Positions 1,316 through 58,520 are shown, counted from the stretch's first letter. The stretch: DNA of 64,000 nucleotides from Escherichia phage PECP20 (OQ873415.1), one strand, 5' to 3'. Numbers and translations: made by a program. Notes: a model not told the origin generated them from the letters alone.

Positions 1316-2176
1316 TTATACCGCCATTTTAGCTTTGATAGCTGGATGTGATTCGTAATTTTTAAGAATGAAATCACTCGGATTCATATGCTCTGTTACC
1401 CAATGAAGCTGTAATGTCGTGCTCCAATCAGAGAATCCTTCAGGCCAATCAATTTTAAGTTCACACAGTTCTTTAGGCTCACGACGAAGAACTTCTTTGC
1501 ATTGCTCAACATGGTTGCTGTAGATATGCGTGTTGCCGCCTGAGAACACTAAATCACCTGGGATAAGATTACACATCTTAGCCACAATATGCGTCAAGGC
1601 AGCGTACGAGGCAATGTTGAACGGCAGGCCCAAGAAAACATCTACACTGCGTTGATACCATTGTAAATCAAGATGTCCATTACGCACATTAAATTGATAG
1701 AACATATGACAAGGAGGAAGAGCCATTTGGTCAATTTCGGCAGGGTTCCAGGCAGAAACAATTTGACGACGATCAGTTGGTAATTTTTTAATACGGTCGA
1801 TTGTTTCAACTAATTGGTCCACACCACCGAAATCACGCCATTGTTTACCATATATAGGACCAAGTTCACCACTATGATAACCAAGGTCTTTTGCCTGATT
1901 TTCGTAATTATCGTCCCAAATAGTTTTACCTTCAATTAGACTACCATGAGTACGAAGACGTAATTCATTAACATTAGTAGAACCGGACATGAACCACAGT
2001 AACTCGGCAATACAAGCTTTCCATGCTAATTTCTTAGTTGTTACTGCAGGGAATCCTTTAGTCAGGTCCCAACGTAATTTAGTTCCGAACAGGGCAATTG
2101 TTCCTGTGCCTGTACGGTCGTCTGTTTCGTAGCCATTTTCTAGGATATCATTAATCAGGTATTGGTATTGTTTCAT
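1316..2176 (-). CDS. td: Thymidylate synthase, uninterrupted reading frame
   Basis: 286 aa; ThyA motifs (LPPCH-type active-site Cys region, QRSVDVFLGLPFN, DRRQIVSAWNP); same size as spliced T4 td product; ATGA overlap with frd. Confidence 0.95.
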   Translation of the reverse strand: MKQYQYLINDILENGYETDDRTGTGTIALFGTKLRWDLTKGFPAVTTKKLAWKACIAELLWFMSGSTNVNELRLRTHGSLIEGKTIWDDNYENQAKDLGYHSGELGPIYGKQWRDFGGVDQLVETIDRIKKLPTDRRQIVSAWNPAEIDQMALPPCHMFYQFNVRNGHLDLQWYQRSVDVFLGLPFNIASYAALTHIVAKMCNLIPGDLVFSGGNTHIYSNHVEQCKEVLRREPKELCELKIDWPEGFSDWSTTLQLHWVTEHMNPSDFILKNYESHPAIKAKMAV

Positions 2177-2760
2177 TTATATACGCTCTCAGTAATTTCG
2201 GTGAGTTCATCGATTCTGTAGTAATGAGATTCTACCATAGAACGTTGAAGCATAATATCTTGGATGAAATCTTTATCAAGTTGAACATCGGAATTAACAC
2301 GACATTTCTTAATGATTTTAGTCATCACAATTTCATCGGCATAAGGCAGTGCTTGTTTTAATAAGGCAGGACCGCCGATAACAGATACATCAACATGTTC
2401 AGTAGAAAGTTTAAACGGTACGTCTGTTGAAGGGCTGAACAAGTTAATTTCACTACCAGTCACCAGGGTAATAAATTCTGCTTGGGTGATATAGAACCGT
2501 GCAAGTTCATCAGTTTTAGTCCTAGGCAGTTTTCTGGCCATATCAGTGACAACCACATGAGTACGATCTGGTAGTAGACGAGGTAATGATGCAAAAGTCT
2601 TAGCACCCATAACCAATACAGTGTTTTTAGTGCGAGCAACAAAGTTACTCATATCTTGTTTGATATGCTTCCATGGAAGTCCATCACCTAATCCAAAAGC
2701 ATATTCCAGTTTATCATCAACTGTTTTAGATGGTGCGCATGCGAATACTAATTTAAGCAT
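2173..2760 (-). CDS. frd: Dihydrofolate reductase
   Basis: 195 aa, T4 frd-sized, located between td and gene 32 as in T4; DHFR-like N-terminus (GLGDGLPW). Confidence 0.85.
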   Translation of the reverse strand: MLKLVFACAPSKTVDDKLEYAFGLGDGLPWKHIKQDMSNFVARTKNTVLVMGAKTFASLPRLLPDRTHVVVTDMARKLPRTKTDELARFYITQAEFITLVTGSEINLFSPSTDVPFKLSTEHVDVSVIGGPALLKQALPYADEIVMTKIIKKCRVNSDVQLDKDFIQDIMLQRSMVESHYYRIDELTEITESVYK

Positions 2761-27870: not shown

Positions 27871-28971
27871 TTACGCTGTGAAGATTTTATCCCACATCGC
27901 AACAACTGCATCTCGGTTATACTTCTTCCATACGGCTTCAGCACGTTTAACTCGAGCTTCGTATGTGTCAGTGAATTCTAATACAGCTTTTGTGTAAAGC
28001 GCAACTACTTCTTTCTTAGGAGTAGAGGAATCAATTTCTACACGCACAGTATCTGGGTCATATTCGAATGTCGCGTGCGGATAATCCTTAAAAACTAACT
28101 GAATCACAGGGACACCTTTAGAGATGGCTTCAATAGAACTATTCTCTACCGTACCCGTGTCAGGACACGTATTGATAAGTGCTTTAGCTGTTTTAAGACG
28201 TTCCATGATTTCACTGTGTGGAGCATCAATAATAACAGGATACTTAGCCGGTGGTGCCCATTTACTAGGACAGTATCCTGCACCATTTTCGCCTAGTGCT
28301 TTAATCGCTTCAAGAGCAACATCAGTACGACGCATTTTAGTGTCATAACGTTGTGCACTAATAATCAGATCAGTCGCCGGAAGAACTTCAGGTTTCTCAT
28401 TCAAACAAATAACCGGATAATCTTCGGCTTCAAACAACGGATTTGCTCGCCAATAATCATAATCAATTTTGTCAGTCAGACCTGAAGTCATATAACAATA
28501 TTTGCGTTCAAATTCACGGAAGGCTTTAGTAGGAGCATAACTCTTACCACCGTTCTTATGAATTTGAATAGTCTGGTCCCAAATTTGAACAATACCACGA
28601 GATACCGGTTCAAATGGTGTTGCCATAAAATTCTTATGAACTTTAGAGAGACCTGCGTCTTTAATTGCCTGAACGGTTAGTTTGGTCGGTTCCATTGTAA
28701 CAACGAAATCGTACTCATTAATGCCGGCTAGTTCAACAATCTTACGAGCCATAGTATAACTCATACCTAGACTGAATTTAGTCAGATGACCAACAGGATG
28801 ATGATTAACCTTCCAATCACCAAATGTGTCATTATCAAAACCGATATAATCAATATCGGCACCGATAGAAACTAAATATTTCAACACATTTAAATGTACT
28901 GCTTCAAGACCACCTTGTACACGTTCAGGATTAAATGGGACTGCACGAGATGGGATAAACATAACTTTCAT
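27871..28971 (-). CDS. putative GT-B fold glycosyltransferase (candidate DNA hmC sugar transferase)
   Basis: 366 aa; C-terminal donor-binding motif PDTGTVENSSIEAISKGVPVI matching the E-x7-E / EAxxxGxPVI signature of GT-B (GT4-like) enzymes; occupies the gene 60/mobA slot of T4. Confidence 0.6.
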   Translation of the reverse strand: MKVMFIPSRAVPFNPERVQGGLEAVHLNVLKYLVSIGADIDYIGFDNDTFGDWKVNHHPVGHLTKFSLGMSYTMARKIVELAGINEYDFVVTMEPTKLTVQAIKDAGLSKVHKNFMATPFEPVSRGIVQIWDQTIQIHKNGGKSYAPTKAFREFERKYCYMTSGLTDKIDYDYWRANPLFEAEDYPVICLNEKPEVLPATDLIISAQRYDTKMRRTDVALEAIKALGENGAGYCPSKWAPPAKYPVIIDAPHSEIMERLKTAKALINTCPDTGTVENSSIEAISKGVPVIQLVFKDYPHATFEYDPDTVRVEIDSSTPKKEVVALYTKAVLEFTDTYEARVKRAEAVWKKYNRDAVVAMWDKIFTA

Positions 28972-40623: not shown

Positions 40624-41145
40624 TTAGTAACCATTATCCTGACGTTCAAAGTTGTGTTGGTTTTTCAAGTAGTAAAGTTTAAAGATTTCTTCAGCAGAAA
40701 GACCAAGACCTTGGAACATATTTAGAACGAAATGCAGAATATCAATCATTTCAAATTTAATTTCAAGCTGGTCTTCAGGAGACAGTTCATCGATACGACG
40801 ATTTCGATATTCAGCATGTTGTGCTTTCCATGGCTTCCATACACTGCTAGCGGCTTTTTCACCATTGCTCATACCACCAAGTGAAGTCAGCAGTTCACGG
40901 AATTCATCATCAATATAATCTTTCTGATTACGCAGCCAATCAACAACATCACCAGCAGTAGCCAATTCATCAGGATGTTTGTTATGTTCAGGCTTGTCAT
41001 TTGCCAGACGAACCTGTAAAGATTTCTGCATATCAAGCATTACCTGCAGTGGGTCTTTATCTTCGTGAATCAGAGCATTAAAATAAGCTTCTTCTGCTTT
41101 ATCAACACCAGAAATAAGTTGTGAACATTCATTAAAGTGCGCCAT
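40624..41145 (-). CDS. 56: dCTP/dUTP pyrophosphatase gp56 (MazG-like)
   Basis: ATG at 41145 with SD AAAGGAAAAATA upstream gives 173 aa (T4 gp56 171 aa); MazG-type E-rich motifs. Confidence 0.8.
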   Translation of the reverse strand: MAHFNECSQLISGVDKAEEAYFNALIHEDKDPLQVMLDMQKSLQVRLANDKPEHNKHPDELATAGDVVDWLRNQKDYIDDEFRELLTSLGGMSNGEKAASSVWKPWKAQHAEYRNRRIDELSPEDQLEIKFEMIDILHFVLNMFQGLGLSAEEIFKLYYLKNQHNFERQDNGY

Positions 41146-41233
41146 TATTTTTCCTTTCAATTCAGTATAAGAGAGTTAATTCTAACATTAATTTTATAAA
41201 GCGTAATAAATAATAGGTAACTAAGGAGATATT

Positions 41234-47955: not shown

Positions 47956-49120
47956 CGAAATCTTCCATTTCGTCAAGGTCGTTTTCAATATCTGCTGCAG
48001 ACGGAGCATCAGAAGCTTTAACCGGAACTTTAGTTGTTGCTTTGCAATTAATAAGGTCGTTAACAGCGTCATCAACTTCTTTAATAGAAGAGATAGCGCC
48101 TAGTTTATATTTAGTTTCAATTGCATCTCGGAAAGGTTTGTGTTTAAACAACGGTCCCCAGAATTCTACACAATCAGTAGCTTTAGCACGCCACGATTTC
48201 TCTTCACGAATCATTTCACCTGTTTCTTCGTCAAGGAATTCACGAGCATACCAACCAGCTTTAGGCTTAACAACAAATCCAATTTCAGTTGCCATTTCTA
48301 ACAAGCCACTGAATGGATCGATACCGCCGTCAAAATTAACCGTGATTGGGAAAGTAGATTTCTCTTTAACTGTACGAGATTTTTCTGCTTTCAACGTGAA
48401 GTCATAACCGGTCAATTCTGTACCTTCTTTAACCTGACGTTTAGAGATAAAGAATACAGTGTTAGCAGAGTAAAGAATACCTGTACCACCACCCATAATC
48501 TCTTTAGGATATAGTCCGCCGATTTCCATTGCTGTATGGTTGATTGCAACACACGGAATATCTTTAATAGTCAGATAAGGAGTCACAATACGGAACAGAG
48601 ATTTAAGTGCCTTAGCACGAGACATATCACCTACGACTTTCTCGTTCAATGCATCTTCGGTTTCTTTCTTAGATGCAGTATTACCGATTGAATCGATAAA
48701 GATAATAACTTTATCACCGCGTTCAATAGCGTCAAGCTGATTAGTCATATCAACTTTAAGTTGTTCTACAGATTGAATCGGAGTATGAACTACACGGTCT
48801 AAATCAACACCCATTGAACGAAAATAAGATTCTGAAGCACCGAATTCCGAGTCATAAAACAAACAGATTGCATCTTTATATTTCTTCATATACGCTGCAA
48901 CCATAGTCAGCCCAAACAATGTTTTAAAGTGTTTAGAAGGAGCAGCAAAAATAGTTAAGCCTGATTGCAATCCTGCATTCAGAGCACCACCTAGTGCGAT
49001 ATTCAACATCGGAATACGAGTAGGGACTTCATCACGATTATTAAACAGCTTAGACTTAGTCAAGTCTGCAGTCATTTTAGAAGTAGAAGCTTTAATCAGA
49101 CGAGATTTTAAATCAGACAT
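47948..49120 (-). CDS. uvsX: Recombinase UvsX (RecA/Rad51 family)
   Basis: 390 aa (T4 UvsX 391 aa); Walker A and acidic C-terminal tail. Confidence 0.9.
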   Translation of the reverse strand: MSDLKSRLIKASTSKMTADLTKSKLFNNRDEVPTRIPMLNIALGGALNAGLQSGLTIFAAPSKHFKTLFGLTMVAAYMKKYKDAICLFYDSEFGASESYFRSMGVDLDRVVHTPIQSVEQLKVDMTNQLDAIERGDKVIIFIDSIGNTASKKETEDALNEKVVGDMSRAKALKSLFRIVTPYLTIKDIPCVAINHTAMEIGGLYPKEIMGGGTGILYSANTVFFISKRQVKEGTELTGYDFTLKAEKSRTVKEKSTFPITVNFDGGIDPFSGLLEMATEIGFVVKPKAGWYAREFLDEETGEMIREEKSWRAKATDCVEFWGPLFKHKPFRDAIETKYKLGAISSIKEVDDAVNDLINCKATTKVPVKASDAPSAADIENDLDEMEDFDE

Positions 49121-49218
49121 TGTATTTTTCCATAGGCATCATTATATTTTACTCATGTTTAAAAGATAAGACGATTATATACTAAGGGTTATACAGCATT
49201 TAAAACTTTAAATGGCTC

Positions 49219-49767
49219 TTAACGAGCCCATTTGATGATTTCTGTAATCAAACCATTACGTTCGCTTGCATTAAATCCTATAATTTTGTTAGCACCATCA
49301 TGATTAAGTAATTGATACGTTTGGATTTTGTTATGAATTGCAAACTCTTCAAAATGTGAAATGACTGTATTAAAACCGAATGAAGACAAAGTAATAAGGT
49401 CGTCTTCAAAACTTTCAGTCATTTCATTACGTGTTAAAATAATTGTGAACACATCATGGTTTTGGCAAAGACGAACATAGTCCTGTTCATAAACATCAAG
49501 AACAGAGTCCGCATCTTGCCGAATACGTCCATAAACCCAGTTACTAATATATCCACGGTCTAACAGATAAATCTTAGTAGGGTCTAAATAATTCAACATC
49601 GTTTCGAAACAGCCAACTTCATTTCGAGACTTAACATCGAAACGTCCATCAACTGTTCGTTTAGGAAAATCAATCTTTACATATCTTTCACTAATTTCCA
49701 TTATGTCATTAATGAAAGTTGTTTTACCAGCATTATCTGGGCCGTCTACTAAAATAATTTTAGCCAT
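49219..49767 (-). CDS. P-loop kinase-like protein (unknown substrate)
   Basis: 182 aa; Walker A GPDNAGKTT at residues 9-17; size and layout of small nucleoside/nucleotide or sugar kinases; not a T4 gene at this locus. Confidence 0.5.
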   Translation of the reverse strand: MAKIILVDGPDNAGKTTFINDIMEISERYVKIDFPKRTVDGRFDVKSRNEVGCFETMLNYLDPTKIYLLDRGYISNWVYGRIRQDADSVLDVYEQDYVRLCQNHDVFTIILTRNEMTESFEDDLITLSSFGFNTVISHFEEFAIHNKIQTYQLLNHDGANKIIGFNASERNGLITEIIKWAR

Positions 49768-49768
49768 T

Positions 49769-50668
49769 TTATTCCTCGATTACGACATCTTCGTATTTAG
49801 GTATATTATATGGTGAAGAAATTAAAGCATTAAAGTAGATGAACTCACCAAGACCTGGATGGAATACTTCTTCAGGATTTTCGAAATATTGAATCTTCGG
49901 GCGTCCTTTAAGAATTTGATAGTACTCAGTTTTAGTTGGTTTAAAAATTCGAATCAGCGCTTCTTCAGGATACTTATTTCTGTCGAAGCTATTATTTGGA
50001 TCGGTTATATAAAGCGGTTGACCTAATTGAATTGCACATTCAACCACTTGTTCAAAACGATAACATGGGTCACTAATTCGAAATGGATGAAAAATACCAT
50101 CTAGATGAATAGGAGCCAAATCACCTACAAGACGCTGCATGATGGAAGGACGTATAACTTTCTGAGTTACGATAATCTTATTACCATCTGCACCTGCGTT
50201 AACCAGCACTTCTTTTTGACGTTCATTCAACACGGTAGTTTGAAGTGAACGATTAACTGACAACATATCGGTTTTTAAGAATTCGTCAATATAAAAACGT
50301 TGTTTATTAGGGTCTGCAGTGATATTGAAATTGAATTCTACATCAAAAGCGCCGCCATAACCAGTGATATCTGTGATTAGAAAATCACAATCATAATAAT
50401 CAATTAATGAATCAACCACAAATTCATTTTCAGTCCAGAAATATTTACGAGTGTTATACGCGTTATCTTTATACCATAATGGAACAAACTTAAATTCTGG
50501 GAAAAGACGTTCGCATTCTTTAATATCAGATGCATTACGTGGATATGTAATCACATCACCCGGATTAGCACGGTGCAAATGAAGTTGGAAGTTGCCATCC
50601 TTAAGGATAGCATACTGTCCAGTTTCATAAGACCGCATACTCAAGATTGGTACGCGGAAAATAGCCAT
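49769..50668 (-). CDS. hypothetical protein occupying T4 beta-gt locus (possible transferase)
   Basis: 299 aa; no confident motif (a DCD tripeptide after a hydrophobic stretch could be a DxD); translationally coupled to flanking genes. Confidence 0.45.
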   Translation of the reverse strand: MAIFRVPILSMRSYETGQYAILKDGNFQLHLHRANPGDVITYPRNASDIKECERLFPEFKFVPLWYKDNAYNTRKYFWTENEFVVDSLIDYYDCDFLITDITGYGGAFDVEFNFNITADPNKQRFYIDEFLKTDMLSVNRSLQTTVLNERQKEVLVNAGADGNKIIVTQKVIRPSIMQRLVGDLAPIHLDGIFHPFRISDPCYRFEQVVECAIQLGQPLYITDPNNSFDRNKYPEEALIRIFKPTKTEYYQILKGRPKIQYFENPEEVFHPGLGEFIYFNALISSPYNIPKYEDVVIEE

Positions 50669-51384
50669 TAGTCAAGGAATCCTTTAACATAATCAAAATC
50701 ACGTTCAAACACATGGGCGCTTACCATGGTATGAGTATAATCACCAACTTCTACACCGCATTCGTTAGCGATATAATGAAGTAATTTTCCTTGGAGATAA
50801 AAATCCAACTGCATAACAACAGCACAGTTCTGAGAACGCATATGACAGTGGGTATAAAGCTTACCATCACGAATATAATAAGTTACTGAGTCAGTACATG
50901 GATATTCAAGTGTTTCGTCCGAATCAAGCAAAGCCTGATCAGAACTTTCTAGAATTTGGAACACAACTCTTCGAGAGTTAGGTTTTTCTTTAAGTTCTTT
51001 TAGAAGAGTTGGTAATTGGGCCGCAATGCGAGGGCCATAGAAAGTGTTGAAGTTCGCCGGCAAAACATCTGATTTTGGTTTAGAAATAAATTTAGCGACA
51101 TTAGGATATGCCTTAAACGCTTCTTCTGCGTTGGTACCACCAGAAATCATAAACTTCCAGAAGTCTTCGGCATATTCATAAGAGATGCGGTTAATACGTG
51201 GGTCGGTCATTTTGAATGATGATGGAGTGTCAACAACTACTGTCATAGACCCAATTTCATTACAACGTCCAATACGAGAATCAGTTACGAATTCGGGGTT
51301 TTCTAAAATTTCACGATTGACTGCTTTAAATGCGGTTTGAAAATCTGCGGCTTTGATATATTTCATTGTGTTATGTTTTCCCAT
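50668..51384 (-). CDS. 42: Thymidylate-synthase-fold pyrimidine hydroxymethylase, gp42-like (dCMP hydroxymethylase)
   Basis: 238 aa; motifs NSRR, PCTDS (catalytic Cys), MRSQN and C-terminal SAHVFERDF parallel T4 gp42 NPDSRRG / MCTNT / MRSND / SLHVYSRHF as recalled. Confidence 0.6.
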   Translation of the reverse strand: MGKHNTMKYIKAADFQTAFKAVNREILENPEFVTDSRIGRCNEIGSMTVVVDTPSSFKMTDPRINRISYEYAEDFWKFMISGGTNAEEAFKAYPNVAKFISKPKSDVLPANFNTFYGPRIAAQLPTLLKELKEKPNSRRVVFQILESSDQALLDSDETLEYPCTDSVTYYIRDGKLYTHCHMRSQNCAVVMQLDFYLQGKLLHYIANECGVEVGDYTHTMVSAHVFERDFDYVKGFLD

Positions 51385-51426
51385 GTTTACCTCAATACAA
51401 TTTATTATATACTCAATTCATAAAGC

Positions 51427-51666
51427 TTATTTGAATTTCTTGACAATGTTGATATAACGTAAAGCTTCAGAATCTATACTTCCAAGAACACTATGAAGGA
51501 ATGCATCAGTGTAGTATTCCAATTGAACAGGTTCTTTAATCACTTTAGCCGCTTTGGTTTCAAACAGGCCCATAAGGGCCTTTTTAAGAATTTGTTCGTT
51601 AGTGTTCAGTTTCATAGTCAAAATCTCTTCGTTAAGTTTATAATTAAAACTTTTTCTAGAAATCAT
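51427..51666 (-). CDS. hypothetical small protein
   Basis: 79-aa ORF, coupled to upstream gene (ATGA-type overlap). Confidence 0.35.
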   Translation of the reverse strand: MISRKSFNYKLNEEILTMKLNTNEQILKKALMGLFETKAAKVIKEPVQLEYYTDAFLHSVLGSIDSEALRYINIVKKFK

Positions 51667-52823
51667 TCCGGGTACCTCAAAGCGTCATCAGAGTTAGTTA
51701 TATCAATAATAGATATGGAGTTTTCTGCTAACCCGTTTTTAGATAATTGACGTTTATAATACCTTTCACAATATGTACACGTTGACCCACAGATTTCATT
51801 AGCACAATCAAAATCTGGATGTCTGAACCACCTTTTTTCTAAAAAGCCATCTAACAAAGAGGTTTCAATATTTACTGTATGTGAAAACTCAGTCTCATTT
51901 TCAAGAGTGAAAATAGTCTCTAAAGGCTTCCACAGTTCTAACAAATTACCTTCAAACTTTTCAGAAGCGTATGCTTCAAGAACTTTCAAAATGTAGTCTG
52001 TGCTACCTGTACGTCCTGAAACTTTGAATTGAGTGATACCAATATCATTATAAAGTTTCAAATCTTGAGGACGAACAAAACGAGTTCTCAACCAGTTAAA
52101 TGGGTCTGTATCACGAGCTTTAATACAGTGCTGCATAGGATATCCATTTAAGGATTTAGCATCATCAGCGGTAACATCAGTACTATGGAAAATATAGCAA
52201 GAGTCACGATAACTACAATGTGTTGTATACCCTTTACCAGCATTAGAACAGAACTCATTTACAAGAACTTCAAATATTATATTGTTCTTATTGCAAAACT
52301 CTGCTGCACGCTTCAGGAAAGAAACTGAACGGTTCTTATGAATTCCGCAACAGACCTTTTTGATGTTATATTGGTCATGTAAGTATTTGATTTGAGTTAC
52401 CGCATCGACATGTAGAATTGTTGAAACTTCAATCTCAATATCTTTATTGACTTCACGAACAATTTCCATAACAACAGGGTTAGCGATAGTAATACGCCAT
52501 ACGCCTATTGACCAAAGATACTGAACATAATCCTGAATAGCTTTCTTCTTCCACTCAACTAGTTCTCTTTTTGAACCAGGATTTATCGTGTTGAGTGTAT
52601 AGTTAAAGCAAATACCTAATTCGTTACAACGTTTAACGTAGTCTTCTAACATCTTTTTGTCAACGTCAGGAAGCCTAAAATCAGGTCTGGCTGCTACAAA
52701 AGCCATTTCTCTTGTAGAGCCATATACTTCGTTTATCAAGCTATTAGGATAGGTTTTATTGAGCTCTACGATTTTATCAAGAAGAGCTAAATCAAAATTC
52801 GTTCCGATTTTAAAAGTATTCAT
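51663..52823 (-). CDS. Cys-rich putative metalloenzyme (possible Fe-S enzyme, U32-like?)
   Basis: 386 aa; many Cys including C-terminal CANEICGSTCTYC (C-x4-C-x3-C-x2-C) and HCSYRDSC resembling the U32 signature CxSYxxxC; assignment speculative. Confidence 0.45.
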   Translation of the reverse strand: MNTFKIGTNFDLALLDKIVELNKTYPNSLINEVYGSTREMAFVAARPDFRLPDVDKKMLEDYVKRCNELGICFNYTLNTINPGSKRELVEWKKKAIQDYVQYLWSIGVWRITIANPVVMEIVREVNKDIEIEVSTILHVDAVTQIKYLHDQYNIKKVCCGIHKNRSVSFLKRAAEFCNKNNIIFEVLVNEFCSNAGKGYTTHCSYRDSCYIFHSTDVTADDAKSLNGYPMQHCIKARDTDPFNWLRTRFVRPQDLKLYNDIGITQFKVSGRTGSTDYILKVLEAYASEKFEGNLLELWKPLETIFTLENETEFSHTVNIETSLLDGFLEKRWFRHPDFDCANEICGSTCTYCERYYKRQLSKNGLAENSISIIDITNSDDALRYPE

Positions 52824-52879
52824 TTTTTTGCATCTCGCGTTAATTGATGCGATGGTTTTTGCAGGTCTTACTTAAATTA

Positions 52880-53281
52880 TTATAGATTTGGTTTATATGA
52901 TTTAAATGTTTCGAATTCGCCTTTATTCATAAGAGCTTTGAATTCGTCAGGACGCATAGCTTTGTCGTCGATAATCCAATCATATACTGGTTTATGTGTT
53001 AGCAAATTATGGTACTTCAAACCAATGTTTTCCAAGTTCTGAATCAGACTTGGGAGAATGTCAATTGCTATACGACCAGGACCTACCGACTTCATACCAC
53101 GGGCAGTGTAAAGCGTTATGGTATGCCCTGCATCATACAGGGCATTAATGGCAGACACCATTTCGACGTCTGGTTTGAAGTTCACGTAATCACGATTGTT
53201 ATTCCACTCTGTTATACAATCATCGACATCAAAACAAAGATTAAGCATGTTTTCTACACGGTGCATTAGATTCGTTCCCAT
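52880..53281 (-). CDS. putative HAD-superfamily phosphatase-like protein
   Basis: 133 aa; N-terminal FDVDDC (DxDx motif I-like) followed by TLYTARG; weak. Confidence 0.4.
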   Translation of the reverse strand: MGTNLMHRVENMLNLCFDVDDCITEWNNNRDYVNFKPDVEMVSAINALYDAGHTITLYTARGMKSVGPGRIAIDILPSLIQNLENIGLKYHNLLTHKPVYDWIIDDKAMRPDEFKALMNKGEFETFKSYKPNL

Positions 53282-54951
53282 TGATGAGTGATATCGCCGC
53301 CGATTGGACGATAGGAAACACCAGTTTCTTTATCAGTTAGTACCCATTTACCAGGATTTTTTGTAATCAGAGTAGCCGTTACAGGTTCTGCTACGTCATA
53401 ACTAATAGAGCCGTCTTGAAGTACACGGCCCATGTTACGTAATTGCTTAGTCAGAAGTTCCATACCTTTATAATATGCGGCAACCGCTTTAAGTGGATTA
53501 TTCTTGAAATAACCACCTAATGCAATCCAGATAATTGCTACTGCCAAATGATGATACTCGTTAAACGAACTCATCTTTCCATATTTGTAAACTAATGGAT
53601 TGATGTTAATAGTCAAATTACAAGTTGTTTCATCAATAGTAAACTGACCCCAGGTCGGATTAGCATTGAATTCATCATAACCTGAAACAGCATAAAGCAC
53701 TTTAGCTTCATCATACAATTTTGGCCCGTAAATCTTGGTTTCACCAAAATATCCACGAGGGTCGATAAACTTGACTTCGCCGTTATCGGTAATCATAGTA
53801 TTACTGAAGTTCGGGTCACCATGAATAACAGAGTACTGTCCCTGAGAACGGTTATGATAACGAATAAGATGTTCTAAAGCTTGTTTCAACATTGGCTTCA
53901 GACGTCCAATCTTAGTGTAGTTCACATGTGTGATTTTACCAAATGAATCAATCAATGGCTGAATGCTTTCACAACGATCAATAACTTTCGTATAGAACTC
54001 TTTAGTGAAATCACGGCGAACAGTTTCAGGACTTACAAAATAAGTGTCCGTGCTGAATTTCAGTGCATCTAAAATTGCATCAACAATTTGTGGACGAGCA
54101 AGACTTGATTTGGATTTAATATATTCAAATGCCGGCTTACCTTTAATACGTTCCATTTCAAAATTATTTTCATTTACCGAAACTAACTGAGGAACTGAAT
54201 CTGATTTCACTTTCAAATACCATGAAATCTCATCTTTTTGAAGAGCTCGACCTTGTTCGGTTAACGCGAATTTAGTTACAGTTTCTTCGCCAATTTCAAC
54301 TGCATTAAAACTACGATTCAGTTCACGAACTTCATGAGCCTTTTCAAGTTTAGGCATATCACCTAAATCAATTAGATTCATAAGCTCTGATTTATTGAAT
54401 GCACTGCCGTAAAGGAATTCTACGAAATCACGACCTTTGCAGTATTCGTGAATTTCCTCATCAGTAGAACCCATGTAGAATTCCCAGTCTTTGAACTGAT
54501 AAATTCCTACAACATTACCACCTGTTGAACCTACGTTAGTGATATTTTCACCATCGAAATTATATCGACATTCATCACCCTTAACATAGATTGCGTTAAC
54601 ATTCCAAGACCATGAACCAAAGTCAGGAATAATATCACACCAGTTAACAATTACGTTATGGCCATCTAAATCTTTGTATAATTTAGCAAGAGCATAAGCA
54701 GAACCATACGCTTCATCAACTGTACGAATAGTCACATTGAACCCTTCTTGCTCGCAATAAGCTCGAACAGTTTCAGCAAATTTTGAATGAACTACTACAA
54801 TAATTTCATCTGCGCCAAGGTCAGAATAAATTGTATACAAATTGCTCAGAATAGTGTCTTGTTTATAGTTAACAAGCACCTTAGGAATATGGTGAGTAAT
54901 TGGATATAAACGAGTTGCTAATCCAGCACCAAGAATAACAGCTTTTTTCAT
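53266..54951 (-). CDS. Bifunctional sugar-1-phosphate nucleotidyltransferase (N-term) / APH-like anomeric sugar kinase (C-term)
   Basis: 561 aa; N-terminal MKKAVILGAGLATRLYPIT (G-x-G-T-R-L nucleotidyltransferase motif); C-terminal VIHGDPNFSNTMITDNGEVKFIDPRGYFG (HxDxxxxN catalytic loop plus IDxR of choline-kinase/APH fold). Confidence 0.6.
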   Translation of the reverse strand: MKKAVILGAGLATRLYPITHHIPKVLVNYKQDTILSNLYTIYSDLGADEIIVVVHSKFAETVRAYCEQEGFNVTIRTVDEAYGSAYALAKLYKDLDGHNVIVNWCDIIPDFGSWSWNVNAIYVKGDECRYNFDGENITNVGSTGGNVVGIYQFKDWEFYMGSTDEEIHEYCKGRDFVEFLYGSAFNKSELMNLIDLGDMPKLEKAHEVRELNRSFNAVEIGEETVTKFALTEQGRALQKDEISWYLKVKSDSVPQLVSVNENNFEMERIKGKPAFEYIKSKSSLARPQIVDAILDALKFSTDTYFVSPETVRRDFTKEFYTKVIDRCESIQPLIDSFGKITHVNYTKIGRLKPMLKQALEHLIRYHNRSQGQYSVIHGDPNFSNTMITDNGEVKFIDPRGYFGETKIYGPKLYDEAKVLYAVSGYDEFNANPTWGQFTIDETTCNLTININPLVYKYGKMSSFNEYHHLAVAIIWIALGGYFKNNPLKAVAAYYKGMELLTKQLRNMGRVLQDGSISYDVAEPVTATLITKNPGKWVLTDKETGVSYRPIGGDITHQWERI

Positions 54952-54992
54952 GTTGAAGTCCTCATTGGTAAGTAGGTGTATTGTACACTATT

Positions 54993-55136
54993 CTAGTTAA
55001 AGCATTCATACTTTGCCTGTAGACCAATCATAATCCATCCAATTACAAGTGTTGGAATCATTACTGGAGCCGTTAAGCCCCAGTAGATAGTCATGGCAAG
55101 CATCAATAGTAAAAGTCCTATTGTTATTGCTTTCAT
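54993..55136 (-). CDS. small hydrophobic protein (47 aa)
   Basis: Hand-translated: MKAITIGLLLLMLAMTIYWGLTAPVMIPTLVIGWIMIGLQAKYECFN; ATG overlaps stop of SIS gene; possible Imm-like membrane peptide. Confidence 0.3.
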   Translation of the reverse strand: MKAITIGLLLLMLAMTIYWGLTAPVMIPTLVIGWIMIGLQAKYECFN

Positions 55137-55768
55137 TGTTCGCCTCGTAACATGGCACCTAGTGCACCACCAGGGTGGAACTTAAGGAAGTCATTAGAGG
55201 TAAATCCACGTTCAGACGAAAGGTTGATAGCAAACGTATCGATAAGCGCTAACAACAATGTAGTGGACATGGTCGGAGCCAGAGAATTCTCATCAACCTC
55301 TACCGCGATGCCTGTACAGAACGTATAATCAAAAAGAGCTTCGTATTCTTGCGGAATGTCAGGGTTACAATGTAACAGAATCTGTTTAACCTGAGGACGA
55401 ATCATACGAAGATGTTTAGCAACACCTATCATTTCTTCAGTCTTACCAGAACGACTGATGTGAACTAATACATCATTAGGTGCAATAAATCCTGCGTCGC
55501 CATGAGAATAATGCCCGGTGTTCAAATACATGCTAGGAATACCTAGTGAAGCAAAAGTCTCGGAAGCTTTAGTTGCGATATTAGCGTTCTTACCAACACC
55601 TGTAATAATTACTCGGCTTTCATAATTACTCAGTCCAGGGCGACGAAGAGTTTCAAGAATAGCATTATATCGGGCAGAGTTTTGACTAATTACTTTAGCC
55701 ATAGTGGCAAGAGATGAAGCTTGTTTTACGATTGCGTCAATAGCGATAGTGATTGGTGTAGTTTTCAT
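55133..55768 (-). CDS. SIS-domain sugar-phosphate isomerase (arabinose-5-phosphate isomerase KdsD/GutQ-like, no CBS domains)
   Basis: 211 aa; ITGVGKNANIA...HGDAGFIAPNDVLVHISRSGKTEE...APTMSTTLLLALIDTF...FLKFHPGGALG parallels the KdsD SIS domain motifs as recalled. Confidence 0.65.
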   Translation of the reverse strand: MKTTPITIAIDAIVKQASSLATMAKVISQNSARYNAILETLRRPGLSNYESRVIITGVGKNANIATKASETFASLGIPSMYLNTGHYSHGDAGFIAPNDVLVHISRSGKTEEMIGVAKHLRMIRPQVKQILLHCNPDIPQEYEALFDYTFCTGIAVEVDENSLAPTMSTTLLLALIDTFAINLSSERGFTSNDFLKFHPGGALGAMLRGEQ

Positions 55769-55808
55769 ATTTCTCTCATTTAATTAGTTTACCGTCCATG
55801 GCATTATA

Positions 55809-58520
55809 TCAAAAATCGAACATATCGAACAGAGATGCTTTCTTCTCGTAATCGAGTTTCGCTGCTGATGTGAATCCTTCAAGTGGTTTAATAAATGTCT
55901 TCTCAAGGAGAACAGTGTAGTCCATCCAATGAAGTACGTCGTCTTTAATTAAATCTGTGATTTCAGTACCAGAAGGCCATGCGATACATTTATCACCGAA
56001 CGGGTTTCCATCACGTAAAGGCAGAACGTATACCTTTTCGCCTTCTACAACTTGTGGAGCATCAATATTACCTTTGATAGCTCTGTTATATGTCAGAATT
56101 CCACGAATATGGAACGGGCATTTAGGACCAGGGAATCCACCAACGTCATATTTAGCAATGTTATTCGCAGAAGATACTGACGCGATGCTAATATAATTCA
56201 ATTGACGGAATTCTTTTTCAAACTCTTTAAAATATTCTTGTAATGATTCTTCACCTTCTTGAAGCATACGACGAATACATTCTTTAAGAGCTTTCTGTAC
56301 TGCTTTAGGGGTCGAAGATTTCTGTGTTTCGAGACCCATGATTTTGAGTTTAGGCTCAGCGTATCTGGTTCCTTCCATATCCCACACGTTTAATGCATAA
56401 CGTTTCTTACCAGTCCAGAATCCACCAATACCTTTAGAACCGAGTGGAGGACCAGCAATAGCTTCTCGGTCCATGAACATCAAATGTTGCTTATTATTCA
56501 TGTATTCACACATTTCACGGAAACCTCTATCAATAGCCGGTTCCATACGTTCACGAGCGAACTTATCTAAGAAGTCTACCCAATGGTTGGTATCACGGAA
56601 TTTAGATTCACCAACCTTATCAATAATTTTATCTGCAGATACGTAAATAGAGTCTGTATCACCATAAAGAACGAAAGCTTCACCTTCTGTACCACAAACT
56701 TCGTTCAGATATTCATTAACTTTACGTTCAATCCACTGTAAAGCCATTTGACCAAATGTTGTGATTGCAGTTGCATTACGCAAATCGTAATAACGGAACC
56801 AAACGTTACCAAGTGCACCATAAAGCGAGTTGATGAGCAATTTACGGTTAATTTGTGCAGTCATACCTGCAACTTCAGTACGTTGAGCTCTAAACAACAT
56901 TTCATTAAGAGATTTAGCAGACAACTTTTTAATCTTTTCTTTAATCTCATCGCTGAAGTCGAAACGATAATCAACATCTAATGGTTCGTCAACAGAAAGA
57001 TTAGGATTATGCAACGCCTCTTTAATTATTTCACCATTACGTTGAGCCGCAAGCATGTAACCTTTATGTTCTTTACGTTGATTAAAGACCTTAGTGATTT
57101 CAGTTGGAACTACACCATCACGGTCTTTATAATACATCATGCCATTAGGAGAACAACTGTACACATCTGAAGGACGTTCAGCGATTGCGTTAATATAATC
57201 ATGCAGTGGAGCTACTTTAAACGTTCCTGCTATTGTTTCCGGGCTAATATTCACTTGGCGAATAATACTTGGATACAGGGATGTAAGGTCGAAACTCATT
57301 ACATATTTGTATCGATTTGGAATAGGTTCCTTAACAAAAGCGCCAGGATAAGGTTGAACCGGGTGAGAACGACCTTGTGGAATCACCTTGTTCTGCTCTT
57401 TAAGGCTATTAAAAATAATAGCATCCCATGTTTTAATTGGGCTAAACACAGATTGAATCTGTATCTTAGCATAATAACCCATGTCCAAACTCAAGTTGAT
57501 GAACTGACGCTTAGCATCAATTTGCAATACACGATACACGTCGATAATGTTATAAGAAATATATCGTTGGTGATTGCTTTCACGAAGCTTAGAAATAGGG
57601 CCGTCATATTTCAGTTTACCAACGTTCAATTCAAATTCTGAAATGTAATCCAGAGAATACGACGGTTGATTGGTAAAAGAGAATTTTTTGTAAAGGTCAA
57701 TGTAATCAAGAACAGAGATACCGAACAATGTAATGATTTCACGAGAACCATACATGTTTTCGATAACTTTAACACGAGTTTTACGATGTGGTGATAAACG
57801 TTTTGCTGTGGATTCACCAAAAATATTCTTGATTCTGTTATACACATATGGAATATCAAATGACTCAACGTTCCATCCAGTCAAAATGACAGGAGTTTTC
57901 TGTTGCCAGAAGTTGAGATATTCCATCAACAATTCTTTTTCGTTATCGAACGGCATATAAATGATTTTATCGATAATTTCGGATGGAACTTCATCACCAC
58001 CTTGTTCTTGAAGCTTAGCAGCGATTTCAATAGACCATTCTTCTACATTACCATATGGAGAATTCAATAGATCAAATACGTAGAACCTGTCGTCAATTGA
58101 GTCATAATGAGTGATAGCATCAATCGGATGTTTTGCTTGTGACGGCTCAGGGAACCCATCCGGAGATGTTACTTCGATGTCGAAGTTAGCCACACGAATT
58201 TTTGTATGGTCGTATTTGATTTCATAGTTATAAGTGTCAGACAAATACGCCAATTTGAAATCGTCCATGCCAAGTGCTTCAAGTCCGATATCTTCCATGC
58301 GTTTAATCCATTGGGAGGCATCACGCATATTAGCGAACAACTTACGAGTACACGGCTTACCGTAGATATCGAAATATTTCGTAGCCTGACTTTCTGGACA
58401 ATGTGCAAACAACGATGGCTTATACTCTACTTCACGAGTACGTTCACGGCCATTAGAATCGATGTAACGTTCAAAAATTGAATCACCAATCTGTTCAACC
58501 GTTAAGTAAAATTCTTTCAT
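55809..58520 (-). CDS. 43: DNA polymerase gp43 (family B, with 3'-5' exonuclease)
   Basis: 903 aa; N-terminus MKEFYLTVEQIGDSIFERYIDSNGRERTREVEYKPSLFAHCPESQATKYFDIYGKPCTRKLF and exo motif NFDIEV match RB69 gp43 as recalled; pol motifs SLYPSII, YGDTDS. Confidence 0.95.
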   Translation of the reverse strand: MKEFYLTVEQIGDSIFERYIDSNGRERTREVEYKPSLFAHCPESQATKYFDIYGKPCTRKLFANMRDASQWIKRMEDIGLEALGMDDFKLAYLSDTYNYEIKYDHTKIRVANFDIEVTSPDGFPEPSQAKHPIDAITHYDSIDDRFYVFDLLNSPYGNVEEWSIEIAAKLQEQGGDEVPSEIIDKIIYMPFDNEKELLMEYLNFWQQKTPVILTGWNVESFDIPYVYNRIKNIFGESTAKRLSPHRKTRVKVIENMYGSREIITLFGISVLDYIDLYKKFSFTNQPSYSLDYISEFELNVGKLKYDGPISKLRESNHQRYISYNIIDVYRVLQIDAKRQFINLSLDMGYYAKIQIQSVFSPIKTWDAIIFNSLKEQNKVIPQGRSHPVQPYPGAFVKEPIPNRYKYVMSFDLTSLYPSIIRQVNISPETIAGTFKVAPLHDYINAIAERPSDVYSCSPNGMMYYKDRDGVVPTEITKVFNQRKEHKGYMLAAQRNGEIIKEALHNPNLSVDEPLDVDYRFDFSDEIKEKIKKLSAKSLNEMLFRAQRTEVAGMTAQINRKLLINSLYGALGNVWFRYYDLRNATAITTFGQMALQWIERKVNEYLNEVCGTEGEAFVLYGDTDSIYVSADKIIDKVGESKFRDTNHWVDFLDKFARERMEPAIDRGFREMCEYMNNKQHLMFMDREAIAGPPLGSKGIGGFWTGKKRYALNVWDMEGTRYAEPKLKIMGLETQKSSTPKAVQKALKECIRRMLQEGEESLQEYFKEFEKEFRQLNYISIASVSSANNIAKYDVGGFPGPKCPFHIRGILTYNRAIKGNIDAPQVVEGEKVYVLPLRDGNPFGDKCIAWPSGTEITDLIKDDVLHWMDYTVLLEKTFIKPLEGFTSAAKLDYEKKASLFDMFDF

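Follow-up and report, generated by a model that had tools for sequence, protein, structure and literature searches.

The locus and its genes

The DNA that was analysed, a stretch of 64,000 nucleotides from Escherichia phage PECP20 (OQ873415.1, in the following called the window), contains on its minus strand an ATG-initiated open reading frame for a protein of 238 aa, which is surrounded by genes for sugar metabolism and sugar transfer (Table 1). An earlier sequence-only reading had described it as a divergent dCMP hydroxymethylase, and the reading frame as well as all motifs quoted there were found exactly as claimed in the ORF listing of the window (NSRR at residues 136-139, PCTDS at 162-166, MRSQN at 182-186, and SAHVFERDF at 222-230). 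The ATG is preceded at a distance of 5 nt by a GAGG ribosome-binding site, and the leader also includes a TATAAT sequence and an upstream element, AAGCTTTA, which may resemble a middle promoter of the T4 MotA-box type. A scan for generic sigma-70 promoters and terminators from 48900 to 56000 yielded fewer promoter-like sites than shuffled sequences and no enrichment. At the other end of the gene, the stop codon overlaps with the start of the next gene in the sequence TAATG.

Table 1. Features of the window that are relevant for the 238-aa protein and its pathway
Feature	Coordinates	Strand	Remarks
Bona fide thymidylate synthase, td	1316..2176	-	Pfam 3.9e-97, full length; 45% identity to E. coli ThyA
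Dihydrofolate reductase, frd	2173..2760	-	Pfam DHFR_1 7.6e-21
Second DNA arabinosyltransferase (RB69 gp3 orthologue)	27871..28971	-	Between rIIA and gene 39; 99.2% to RB69p003
Gene-56-type dCTPase/dUTPase	40624..41160	-	Pfam dUTPase_2 1.2e-6
Thymidylate-kinase-like P-loop nucleotide kinase (RB69 gp45 orthologue), putative	49219..49767	-	98.4% to RB69 gp45
Base-proximal DNA arabinosyltransferase 1 (RB69 gp46:47 orthologue)	49769..50668	-	Role from PMC13326640
Predicted dCMP 5-hydroxylase (5hodCMP synthase), thymidylate synthase (TS) fold	50668..51384	-	Orthologue of RB69 gp48 and HY126 AfhB
Upstream leader	51385..51432	-	GAGG, TATAAT, AAGCTTTA 11 nt upstream of TATAAT; sequence read directly
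79-aa ORF (RB69 gp49 orthologue)	51427..51666	-	4-nt overlap with the U32 gene at its stop codon
U32-family ("peptidase U32") Fe-S-type protein (RB69 gp50 orthologue), candidate O2-independent hydroxylase	51663..52823	-	Pfam Peptidase_U32 7.3e-11
HAD-type sugar phosphatase (RB69 gp51 / HY126 AfhF orthologue)	52880..53281	-	98.5-100% identity; role from PMC13326640
Bifunctional sugar-1-phosphate nucleotidyltransferase (N-terminal) and kinase (C-terminal) (RB69 gp52:53 / HY126 AfhE orthologue)	53266..54951	-	
D-arabinose-5-phosphate isomerase (RB69 gp55 orthologue)	55133..55768	-	SIS domain; 96-100% identity

Over 6 kb around the gene, the window has 99.3% identity to Escherichia phage p000v, a Mosigvirus of the RB69 group, and about 150 coliphage records cover it with at least 95% identity. 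The GenBank labels of the gene vary and include "deoxycytidylate 5-hydroxymethyltransferase", "thymidylate synthase", "thyA", and "hypothetical". The encoded protein is identical to that of p000v (100%), and tblastn or direct comparison revealed identities of 98.7% to RB69 gp48, 97.5% to the HY126 protein, and 68.8% to gp80 of Acinetobacter phage DLP3, while the orthologue of another Mosigvirus, NicPhage, is 99.6% identical. Only three substitutions separate it from RB69 gp48 (N85D, V107A, and T126A) and six from HY126, and none of them affects a signature position (see below).

The complete arabinosylation cluster of RB69 and HY126 is present in the window, collinear and with 96-100% identity (49219-55768, plus 27871-28971 and 40624-41160). 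The neighbouring genes, which had been noted as a "sugar cluster" from the sequence, represent the known pathway of UDP-arabinose synthesis and arabinosyl transfer. Arabinosyltransferase 1 had no match in Pfam or NCBIfam, and tblastn identities were 98.3% to HY126, 96.7% and 100% to the two pieces of the RB69 orthologue, and 46% to DLP3 gp79. The role of the second arabinosyltransferase is taken from the work on RB69 gp3 (PMC13326640; PMC13390438). The small kinase had weak matches only, to dTMP-kinase and AAA profiles, and genes of the RB69 gp45 type are listed as "nucleotide kinase" in Table 1 of PMC13326640. The phosphatase matched TIGR01689 (capsule biosynthesis phosphatase, 1.9e-13), and its GenBank relatives have a start that lies 15 nt further in. 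The bifunctional protein has Pfam matches to NTP_transferase and kinase-like families and is 96.6% identical to HY126 and 99-100% identical to the two pieces of the RB69 orthologue; the AfhE-type nucleotidyltransferase/kinase makes UDP-arabinofuranose (PMC13326640). The isomerase matched KpsF/GutQ (8.5e-32) and KdsD (3.4e-30).

The td, frd, and gene 56 that had been recognized from the sequence are all present. The td product retains Leu143, Asp169, Gly173, and Asn177 (E. coli ThyA numbering). The gene-56-type dCTPase is identical to the "nucleoside triphosphate pyrophosphohydrolase" of p000v, and following that annotation its start codon is probably at 41145. A tblastn search of the 64 kb revealed neither a second gp42-like gene nor a homologue of the T4 beta-glucosyltransferase.

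Signature residues and the predicted reaction of the 238-aa protein

The Pfam family Thymidylat_synt matched the protein with an E value of 1.9e-15, but the match was restricted to residues 122-235, and all NCBIfam matches were to thymidylate synthase models, each far below its own cutoff. Identity to T4 gp42 was 25% over 218 aa (BLASTP E 3e-13), and the suspected divergence of the N-terminal half from gp42 was thus confirmed. In tblastn comparisons, gp42-type phage proteins reached 23-27%, compared to 69-100% within the hydroxylase clade. A sequence search of the PDB retrieved the near-identical entries 9iqc and 9ir2 (238 aa) as well as 9iqu with an E value of 3e-160. The title of 9iqc is "Monooxygenase dependent on riboflavin with dCMP and FAD", and that of 9iqu is "phage HY126 dCMP hydroxylase-AfhB with substrate dCMP". 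Crystal structures of near-identical orthologues contain dCMP and a flavin. An AlphaFold2 model (pLDDT 86.4) was aligned by Foldseek to 9iqc with an E value of 3e-44, TM scores of 0.94/0.96, and an rmsd of 1.7, and together with the Pfam match this verified the proposed thymidylate synthase fold. The next-best structure after the hydroxylases was the CMP hydroxymethylase MilA.

The residues that bear on nucleotide and cofactor specificity were compared with T4 gp42 and E. coli ThyA (Table 2); the ThyA sequence used for the numbering was verified against PDB 1aob. Residue equivalences to ThyA in the N-terminal half are uncertain, and statements about a loss of Trp80 and Trp83 are weak. Conserved in the window protein are the phosphate-binding set R37, R138, R139, R183, and S184 as well as Y116 and H224. 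The proposed nucleophilic cysteine is indeed present as C163. E160, C163, N186, V190, L193, and D194 are invariant in all 120 of the closest database homologues (53-99% identity).

Table 2. Equivalent residues of the window protein, T4 gp42, and E. coli ThyA
Window protein	T4 gp42	E. coli ThyA
E160	D145	L143
C163	C148	C146
N186	D171	D169
V190	G175	G173
L193	N178	F176
D194	D179	N177
F226	Y218	Y209

Structures of thymidylate synthases place Asp169 and Gly173 in contact with the pterin of the folate. Both are kept by T4 gp42 and by the td product of the window, whereas the window protein has Asn186 and Val190 instead, which is consistent with a loss of folate use. C163 and D194 are common to the hydroxylases and T4 gp42 and thus do not discriminate between them. 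A signature has been described in ThyA numbering, which consists of N177D for cytosine specificity, of L143E, and of D169N, the residue that is diagnostic for hydroxylases; nine further homologues with D169N were analysed, and every one of them produced 5hodC (PMC13326640). The Asn at the position of ThyA Asp169 therefore groups the window protein with the hydroxylases, apart from the hydroxymethylases. The sequence-only reading had proposed to inspect the equivalent of T4 gp42 Asp179 and had regarded the choice between dCMP and dUMP as undecidable from sequence. This was too pessimistic, as the equivalent residue is Asp194, and not the Asn of thymidylate synthases, and it argues for a cytosine-specific enzyme. 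Specificity residues of the TS or dUMP type, which would have counted against the sequence-only reading, did not turn up.

The orthologues have been characterized experimentally. When RB69 gp48 and DLP3 gp80 were produced in E. coli together with their own dNMP kinases, 5-hydroxy-dC appeared in the DNA (Lee et al., NAR 2026, PMC13326640), while T4 gp42 yielded 5hmdC in the same assay. The product of RB69 gp48 and DLP3 gp80 was labelled by 18O2, and the 5hodCMP synthases were yellow on purification, with an FMN-like flavin (PMC13326640). For HY126, a flavin-bound crystal structure and an in vitro reconstitution are attributed to He et al. (Nat Chem Biol 2026) by PMC13326640. The reports disagree about the cofactor, which is FMN-like in PMC13326640 and FAD or riboflavin in the PDB titles. 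For orthologues it has thus been shown that dCMP is converted to 5hodCMP with an oxygen from O2 and a loosely bound flavin, that 5hodCMP is phosphorylated by a dNMP kinase, and that arabinosylation takes place on the DNA. An independent study reported 5-ara-dC and 5-ara-ara-dC in NicPhage DNA, described only cytidines as modified in Mosigvirus DNA, and called the older assignment of "arabinosyl-hmC" for RB69 erroneous (PMC13390438).

Taken together, the gene almost certainly encodes a dCMP 5-hydroxylase of the HY126 AfhB / RB69 gp48 family, in which flavin and O2 would replace methylene-tetrahydrofolate, while the TS fold and the nucleotide-binding machinery are kept. The enzyme is already known and was published with structures in 2025-2026, so that the window adds one more orthologue. 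Since the orthologues make 5hodCMP and the arabinosylation pathway adjoins the gene, the phage DNA is predicted to carry arabinosylated 5-hydroxycytosine and not hmC. The earlier idea of a cytosine replacement involving gene 56, td, and frd can be retained, but hmC as the replacing base cannot, as the orthologues yield 5-hydroxy-dCMP. Likewise, the hydroxymethylase reaction had to be given up in view of the Asn186 signature and of the hydroxylation with flavin and O2 by RB69 gp48 (98.7%) and HY126 AfhB (97.5%).

By analogy with thymidylate synthase, Cys163 would add to C6 of dCMP, the activated C5 would attack a flavin-derived hydroperoxide, and beta-elimination of Cys163 would free 5hodCMP; the reduced flavin may be supplied by host reductases. 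Asp194 would read the N3/N4 face of cytosine, Arg37, Arg138, Arg139, Arg183, and Ser184 would hold the phosphate, and Asn186 and Val190 would stand in for the pterin-binding Asp169 and Gly173 of ThyA. The gene-56 dCTPase presumably supplies dCMP and excludes dCTP from the pool. 5hodCMP would then be phosphorylated and incorporated by the phage polymerase; the phosphorylation was shown for the dNMP kinase encoded by RB69 gene 1 (PMC13326640), and gene 1 is outside of the 64-kb window. The two arabinosyltransferases would add arabinofuranose on the DNA, with UDP-Araf from the adjoining isomerase, kinase/uridylyltransferase, and phosphatase genes as the donor. The predicted end product is DNA with mono- and di-arabinosyl-5-hydroxycytosine, which would be resistant to restriction enzymes and CRISPR.

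The usual GenBank label implies a divergent T4 gp42-type dCMP hydroxymethylase, which uses methylene-THF and water and leads to hmC in the DNA. The TS fold, Cys163, Asp194, and the acidic residue at the position of ThyA Leu143 are indeed shared with gp42, the gene sits at the map position of gp42 between uvsX and gene 43, and many records say "deoxycytidylate 5-hydroxymethyltransferase". Nevertheless, such an enzyme is very improbable, and it was rejected on the basis of orthology, Asn186/Val190, and the published assays: the identity to gp42 is low, the folate-contacting Asp and Gly of gp42 are replaced, the nearly identical RB69 gp48 and T4 gp42 gave different products in the same assay, the report of arabinosyl-hmC in RB69 has been called erroneous, and the window is devoid of a beta-glucosyltransferase homologue.

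It also seems hardly credible that the 238-aa protein is catalytically redundant and that the neighbouring U32 Fe-S protein performs most of the cytosine hydroxylation. Across genera the U32 gene is conserved more than the TS-like gene, and metagenomic phage U32 genes are found beside homologues of the base-proximal glycosyltransferase and lack a TS-like gene within 8 kb. However, RB69 gp48 alone was enough for 5hodC formation in E. coli (PMC13326640), phages of Acinetobacter and Pseudomonas and a Dhakavirus carry the TS-like gene in a cluster that is devoid of a U32 gene, and the catalytic residues of the TS-like protein are all invariant. Least probable of all, with next to no likelihood, is a dUMP substrate, i.e., a second thymidylate synthase or an enzyme that hydroxymethylates or hydroxylates dUMP for a thymine-type modification: it could draw on the labels "thymidylate synthase" and "thyA" and on the NCBIfam matches, which are far below the cutoffs, but it was rejected because of Asp194 and the dCMP bound in PDB 9iqu and 9iqc, and it is also opposed by the canonical full-length td in the window and by the restriction of the reported Mosigvirus modifications to cytidines (PMC13390438).

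Assignment as a dCMP 5-hydroxylase has several implications. With respect to chemistry, a TS scaffold would have been switched from folate-dependent one-carbon transfer to hydroxylation with flavin and O2. The enzyme would open the way to DNA with arabinosylated 5-hydroxycytosine, by which many coliphages that are candidates for therapy blunt restriction enzymes and CRISPR. The assignment also has a corrective value, as the gene is still widely labelled as hydroxymethylase or thymidylate synthase. A reading based on T4 leads to the wrong base, hmC, and thus to mispredictions of the sensitivity to type IV restriction, of sequencing behaviour, and of enzymatic DNA handling.

A U32-family gene next to the hydroxylase gene

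The U32 gene is located two genes upstream of the hydroxylase gene, and its product is 99.2% identical to RB69 gp50. The only mention of the RB69-type protein in PMC13326640 is a table entry, "sugar or heterocycle reductase". [quoted passage not shown] NCBIfam did not assign the phage protein to a subfamily, and a match to UbiU was below the threshold (E 9e-4).

The phage U32 protein was found in 221 phage records, all with at least 80% identity, and it is conserved more than the hydroxylase across the same genera. Thirteen cysteines are invariant in T4-like phages, and ten of these are invariant in about 100 metagenomic homologues as well; across 120 homologues, ten cysteines are invariant. 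The invariant cysteines include a C-terminal CX4CX3CX2C motif. In 54 records, the U32 gene and the hydroxylase gene are separated by a chorismate mutase gene, which was confirmed by Pfam. These are phages of Klebsiella, Serratia, Yersinia, Enterobacter, Proteus, Erwinia, Edwardsiella, Shewanella, and others. Chorismate mutase is the enzyme that makes prephenate. In the window this slot is occupied by the 79-aa ORF, which bears no resemblance to the chorismate mutases of these phages. Its size, its position, and its 4-nt overlap with the U32 gene, identical to Enterobacter phage CIP9, had led to the idea of a diverged chorismate mutase, which was rejected after there was no Pfam match, no BLASTP alignment, and an hhalign probability of only 0.2%.

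The clusters of those Acinetobacter and Pseudomonas phages that were examined lack the U32 gene, but so does the cluster of the one Dhakavirus coliphage examined. Acinetobacter and Pseudomonas hosts are aerobes, and an association of aerobic hosts with absence of the U32 gene is therefore suggestive, albeit imperfect. In metagenomic large phages, U32 homologues with 48-58% identity are found beside genes for dCMP deaminase, thymidylate kinase, dNK, NT5C, and UDG. On two metagenomic contigs the U32 homologue is directly beside a homologue of the base-proximal arabinosyltransferase, and on one of them genes for a TAGT-type glycosyltransferase and for a UDP-galactopyranose mutase are neighbours as well. 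A TS-like gene was not present within 8 kb of the metagenomic U32 homologues in any contig examined.

These contexts would fit a candidate second, O2-independent pyrimidine hydroxylase that feeds DNA glycosylation. It is tempting to speculate, although the chances are rather against it, that the cluster encodes two routes to 5-hydroxycytosine, one via the TS-like enzyme with O2 and flavin and the other via an O2-independent, prephenate-dependent U32 protein. Such an arrangement would mirror the host pairs UbiI/H/F versus UbiU/V and TrhO versus TrhP. A second route via a phage U32 protein is not addressed in the literature examined; He et al. 2026 and Mahler et al. 2025 may cover it. If true, enteric phages could fully modify their DNA in the anoxic gut, and phage U32 proteins would be a second hydroxylase family for pyrimidine deoxynucleotides or DNA.

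Comparison with known systems

The closest known systems are RB69 gp48 and HY126 AfhB (PDB 9iqc, 9ir2, and 9iqu), which share with the window protein the full length of 238 aa, the signature, the gene neighbourhood and gene order, and the genus; a functional difference is not expected. DLP3 gp80 has the same E/C/N/V/D signature at 68.8% identity. It is a 5hodCMP synthase (PMC13326640), and DLP3 DNA contains tri-arabinosyl-5hoC. Its gene also adjoins genes for an arabinosyltransferase, a kinase, a phosphatase, and a nucleotidyltransferase, but the DLP3 cluster has three arabinosyltransferases and lacks the U32 gene and the 79-aa ORF.

T4 gp42 resembles the window protein in the TS fold, the Cys nucleophile, the cytosine-specifying Asp, the acidic residue at ThyA position 143, and the map position, and both are devoid of the C-terminal tail that closes over the folate. 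In contrast, gp42 has Asp171 and Gly175 and adds CH2OH from CH2-THF, whereas the window protein has Asn186 and Val190 and is predicted to add OH from O2 via flavin. MilA, a CMP 5-hydroxymethylase (PDB 5b6d and 5jnh), is the best non-orthologous structure (Foldseek E about 1e-18, TM 0.81) and also a TS homologue specific for a cytosine nucleotide, but it has only 24% identity, depends on folate, uses a ribonucleotide as substrate, and belongs to antibiotic biosynthesis. E. coli ThyA and the phage td product share the fold, the phosphate-binding arginines, the Cys, and the equivalents of Tyr94 and His207. From ThyA to the window protein, which has 22% identity and lacks the C-terminal segment, Leu143 is changed to Glu, Asp169 to Asn, Gly173 to Val, Phe176 to Leu, Asn177 to Asp, and Tyr209 to Phe.

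A candidate anaerobic counterpart of the hydroxylase

The U32-family protein of the cytosine-modification cluster had 221 phage matches, and all 221 showed at least 80% identity. Thirteen cysteines were invariant among T4-like phages. About 100 metagenomic homologues shared 10 of the 13 without exception, including the C-terminal motif C340-X4-C345-X3-C349-X2-C352. [quoted passage not shown] The phage U32 protein is a candidate for the anaerobic counterpart of the O2-dependent, thymidylate synthase (TS)-like hydroxylase.

U32 homologues with 48-58% identity were present in the large phage-like metagenomic contigs L013, L016, L014/L015, L017 and L018, and a TS-like gene was not found within 8 kb of the U32 homologue in any of them. 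The adjoining genes encoded dCMP deaminase, thymidylate kinase, UDG, dNK and NT5C, and radical SAM/SPASM and DAHP-synthase-family genes were further neighbours. In L017 and L018 the U32 homologue adjoined a homologue of arabinosyltransferase 1 (26% identity, E-values of 9e-15 and 1e-10, respectively), and L018 further encoded a kinase homologue, a TAGT-type glycosyltransferase and a UDP-galactopyranose mutase.

The chorismate mutase slot

The U32 and hydroxylase genes were separated by a gene for a chorismate mutase (CM_2) in 54 records of phages; the LC53 protein matched Pfam CM_2 at 1.7e-11. The chorismate mutase of Enterobacter phage CIP9 comprises 79 aa, and its gene has a 4-nt overlap with the U32 stop codon. 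The ORF at this site in the window and its RB69 orthologue matched it in length, position and overlap. A comparison of this ORF with phage chorismate mutase yielded no BLASTP alignment and an hhalign probability of 0.2%. The occupant of the slot may be a replacement or an extremely diverged version.

Coordinates of features in the window and of chorismate mutase genes in loci of related phages (L007-L010)
Feature	Location	Strand	Remarks
Thymidylate-kinase-like P-loop protein	window 49219-49767	(-)	RB69 gp45 orthologue
Arabinosyltransferase 1	window 49769-50668		one intact ORF, 299 aa
Hydroxylase 5' region	window 51385-51432	(-)	
79-aa ORF	window 51427-51666		
U32-family protein	window 51663-52823	(-)	RB69 gp50 orthologue
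HAD phosphatase	window 52880-53281	(-)	longest ORF, 133 aa
Nucleotidyltransferase/kinase	window 53266-54951		one intact ORF, 561 aa
Chorismate mutase	L007 6158-6502		
Chorismate mutase	L008 3492-3731		
Chorismate mutase	L009 3486-3731		
Chorismate mutase	L010 3447-3740		

Gene annotations and reading frames

Among the matched GenBank records the naming of the hydroxylase was inconsistent, with the labels deoxycytidylate 5-hydroxymethyltransferase, dCMP hydroxymethylase, thymidylate synthase, thyA and hypothetical. Records gave "phosphoheptose isomerase" for the HAD phosphatase, and LC53 gave "RNA polymerase binding protein" for the arabinosyltransferase. These labels are systematic misannotations in hundreds of phage genomes. 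The longest ORF of the HAD phosphatase begins within the end of the nucleotidyltransferase/kinase gene that lies upstream of it. In p000v and RB69 the annotated start (128 aa) lies 15 nt further downstream, and either codon may be the true start.

Arabinosyltransferase 1 and the nucleotidyltransferase/kinase are each divided into two pieces in the RB69 reference record (gp46/47 and gp52/53). According to a published statement these splits are sequencing errors, which is supported by the unbroken genes in the window.

Kinase neighbour and hydroxylase upstream region

The thymidylate-kinase-like gene was kept beside a glycosyltransferase gene in Mosigvirus, DLP3, PspYZU05, Dhakavirus and the metagenomic locus L018. 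Phosphorylation of 5hodCMP has been shown for the gene-1 dNMP kinase, which is separate from this protein (PMC13326640).

The sequence leading into the hydroxylase start codon is AAGCTTTA-N11-TATAAT-N14-GAGG-N5-ATG, and a second AAGCTTTA, about 40 nt upstream of the first, falls within the 79-aa ORF. Judged by its motifs, the AAGCTTTA/TATAAT arrangement resembles a T4 MotA-dependent middle promoter and is a putative promoter of this type.
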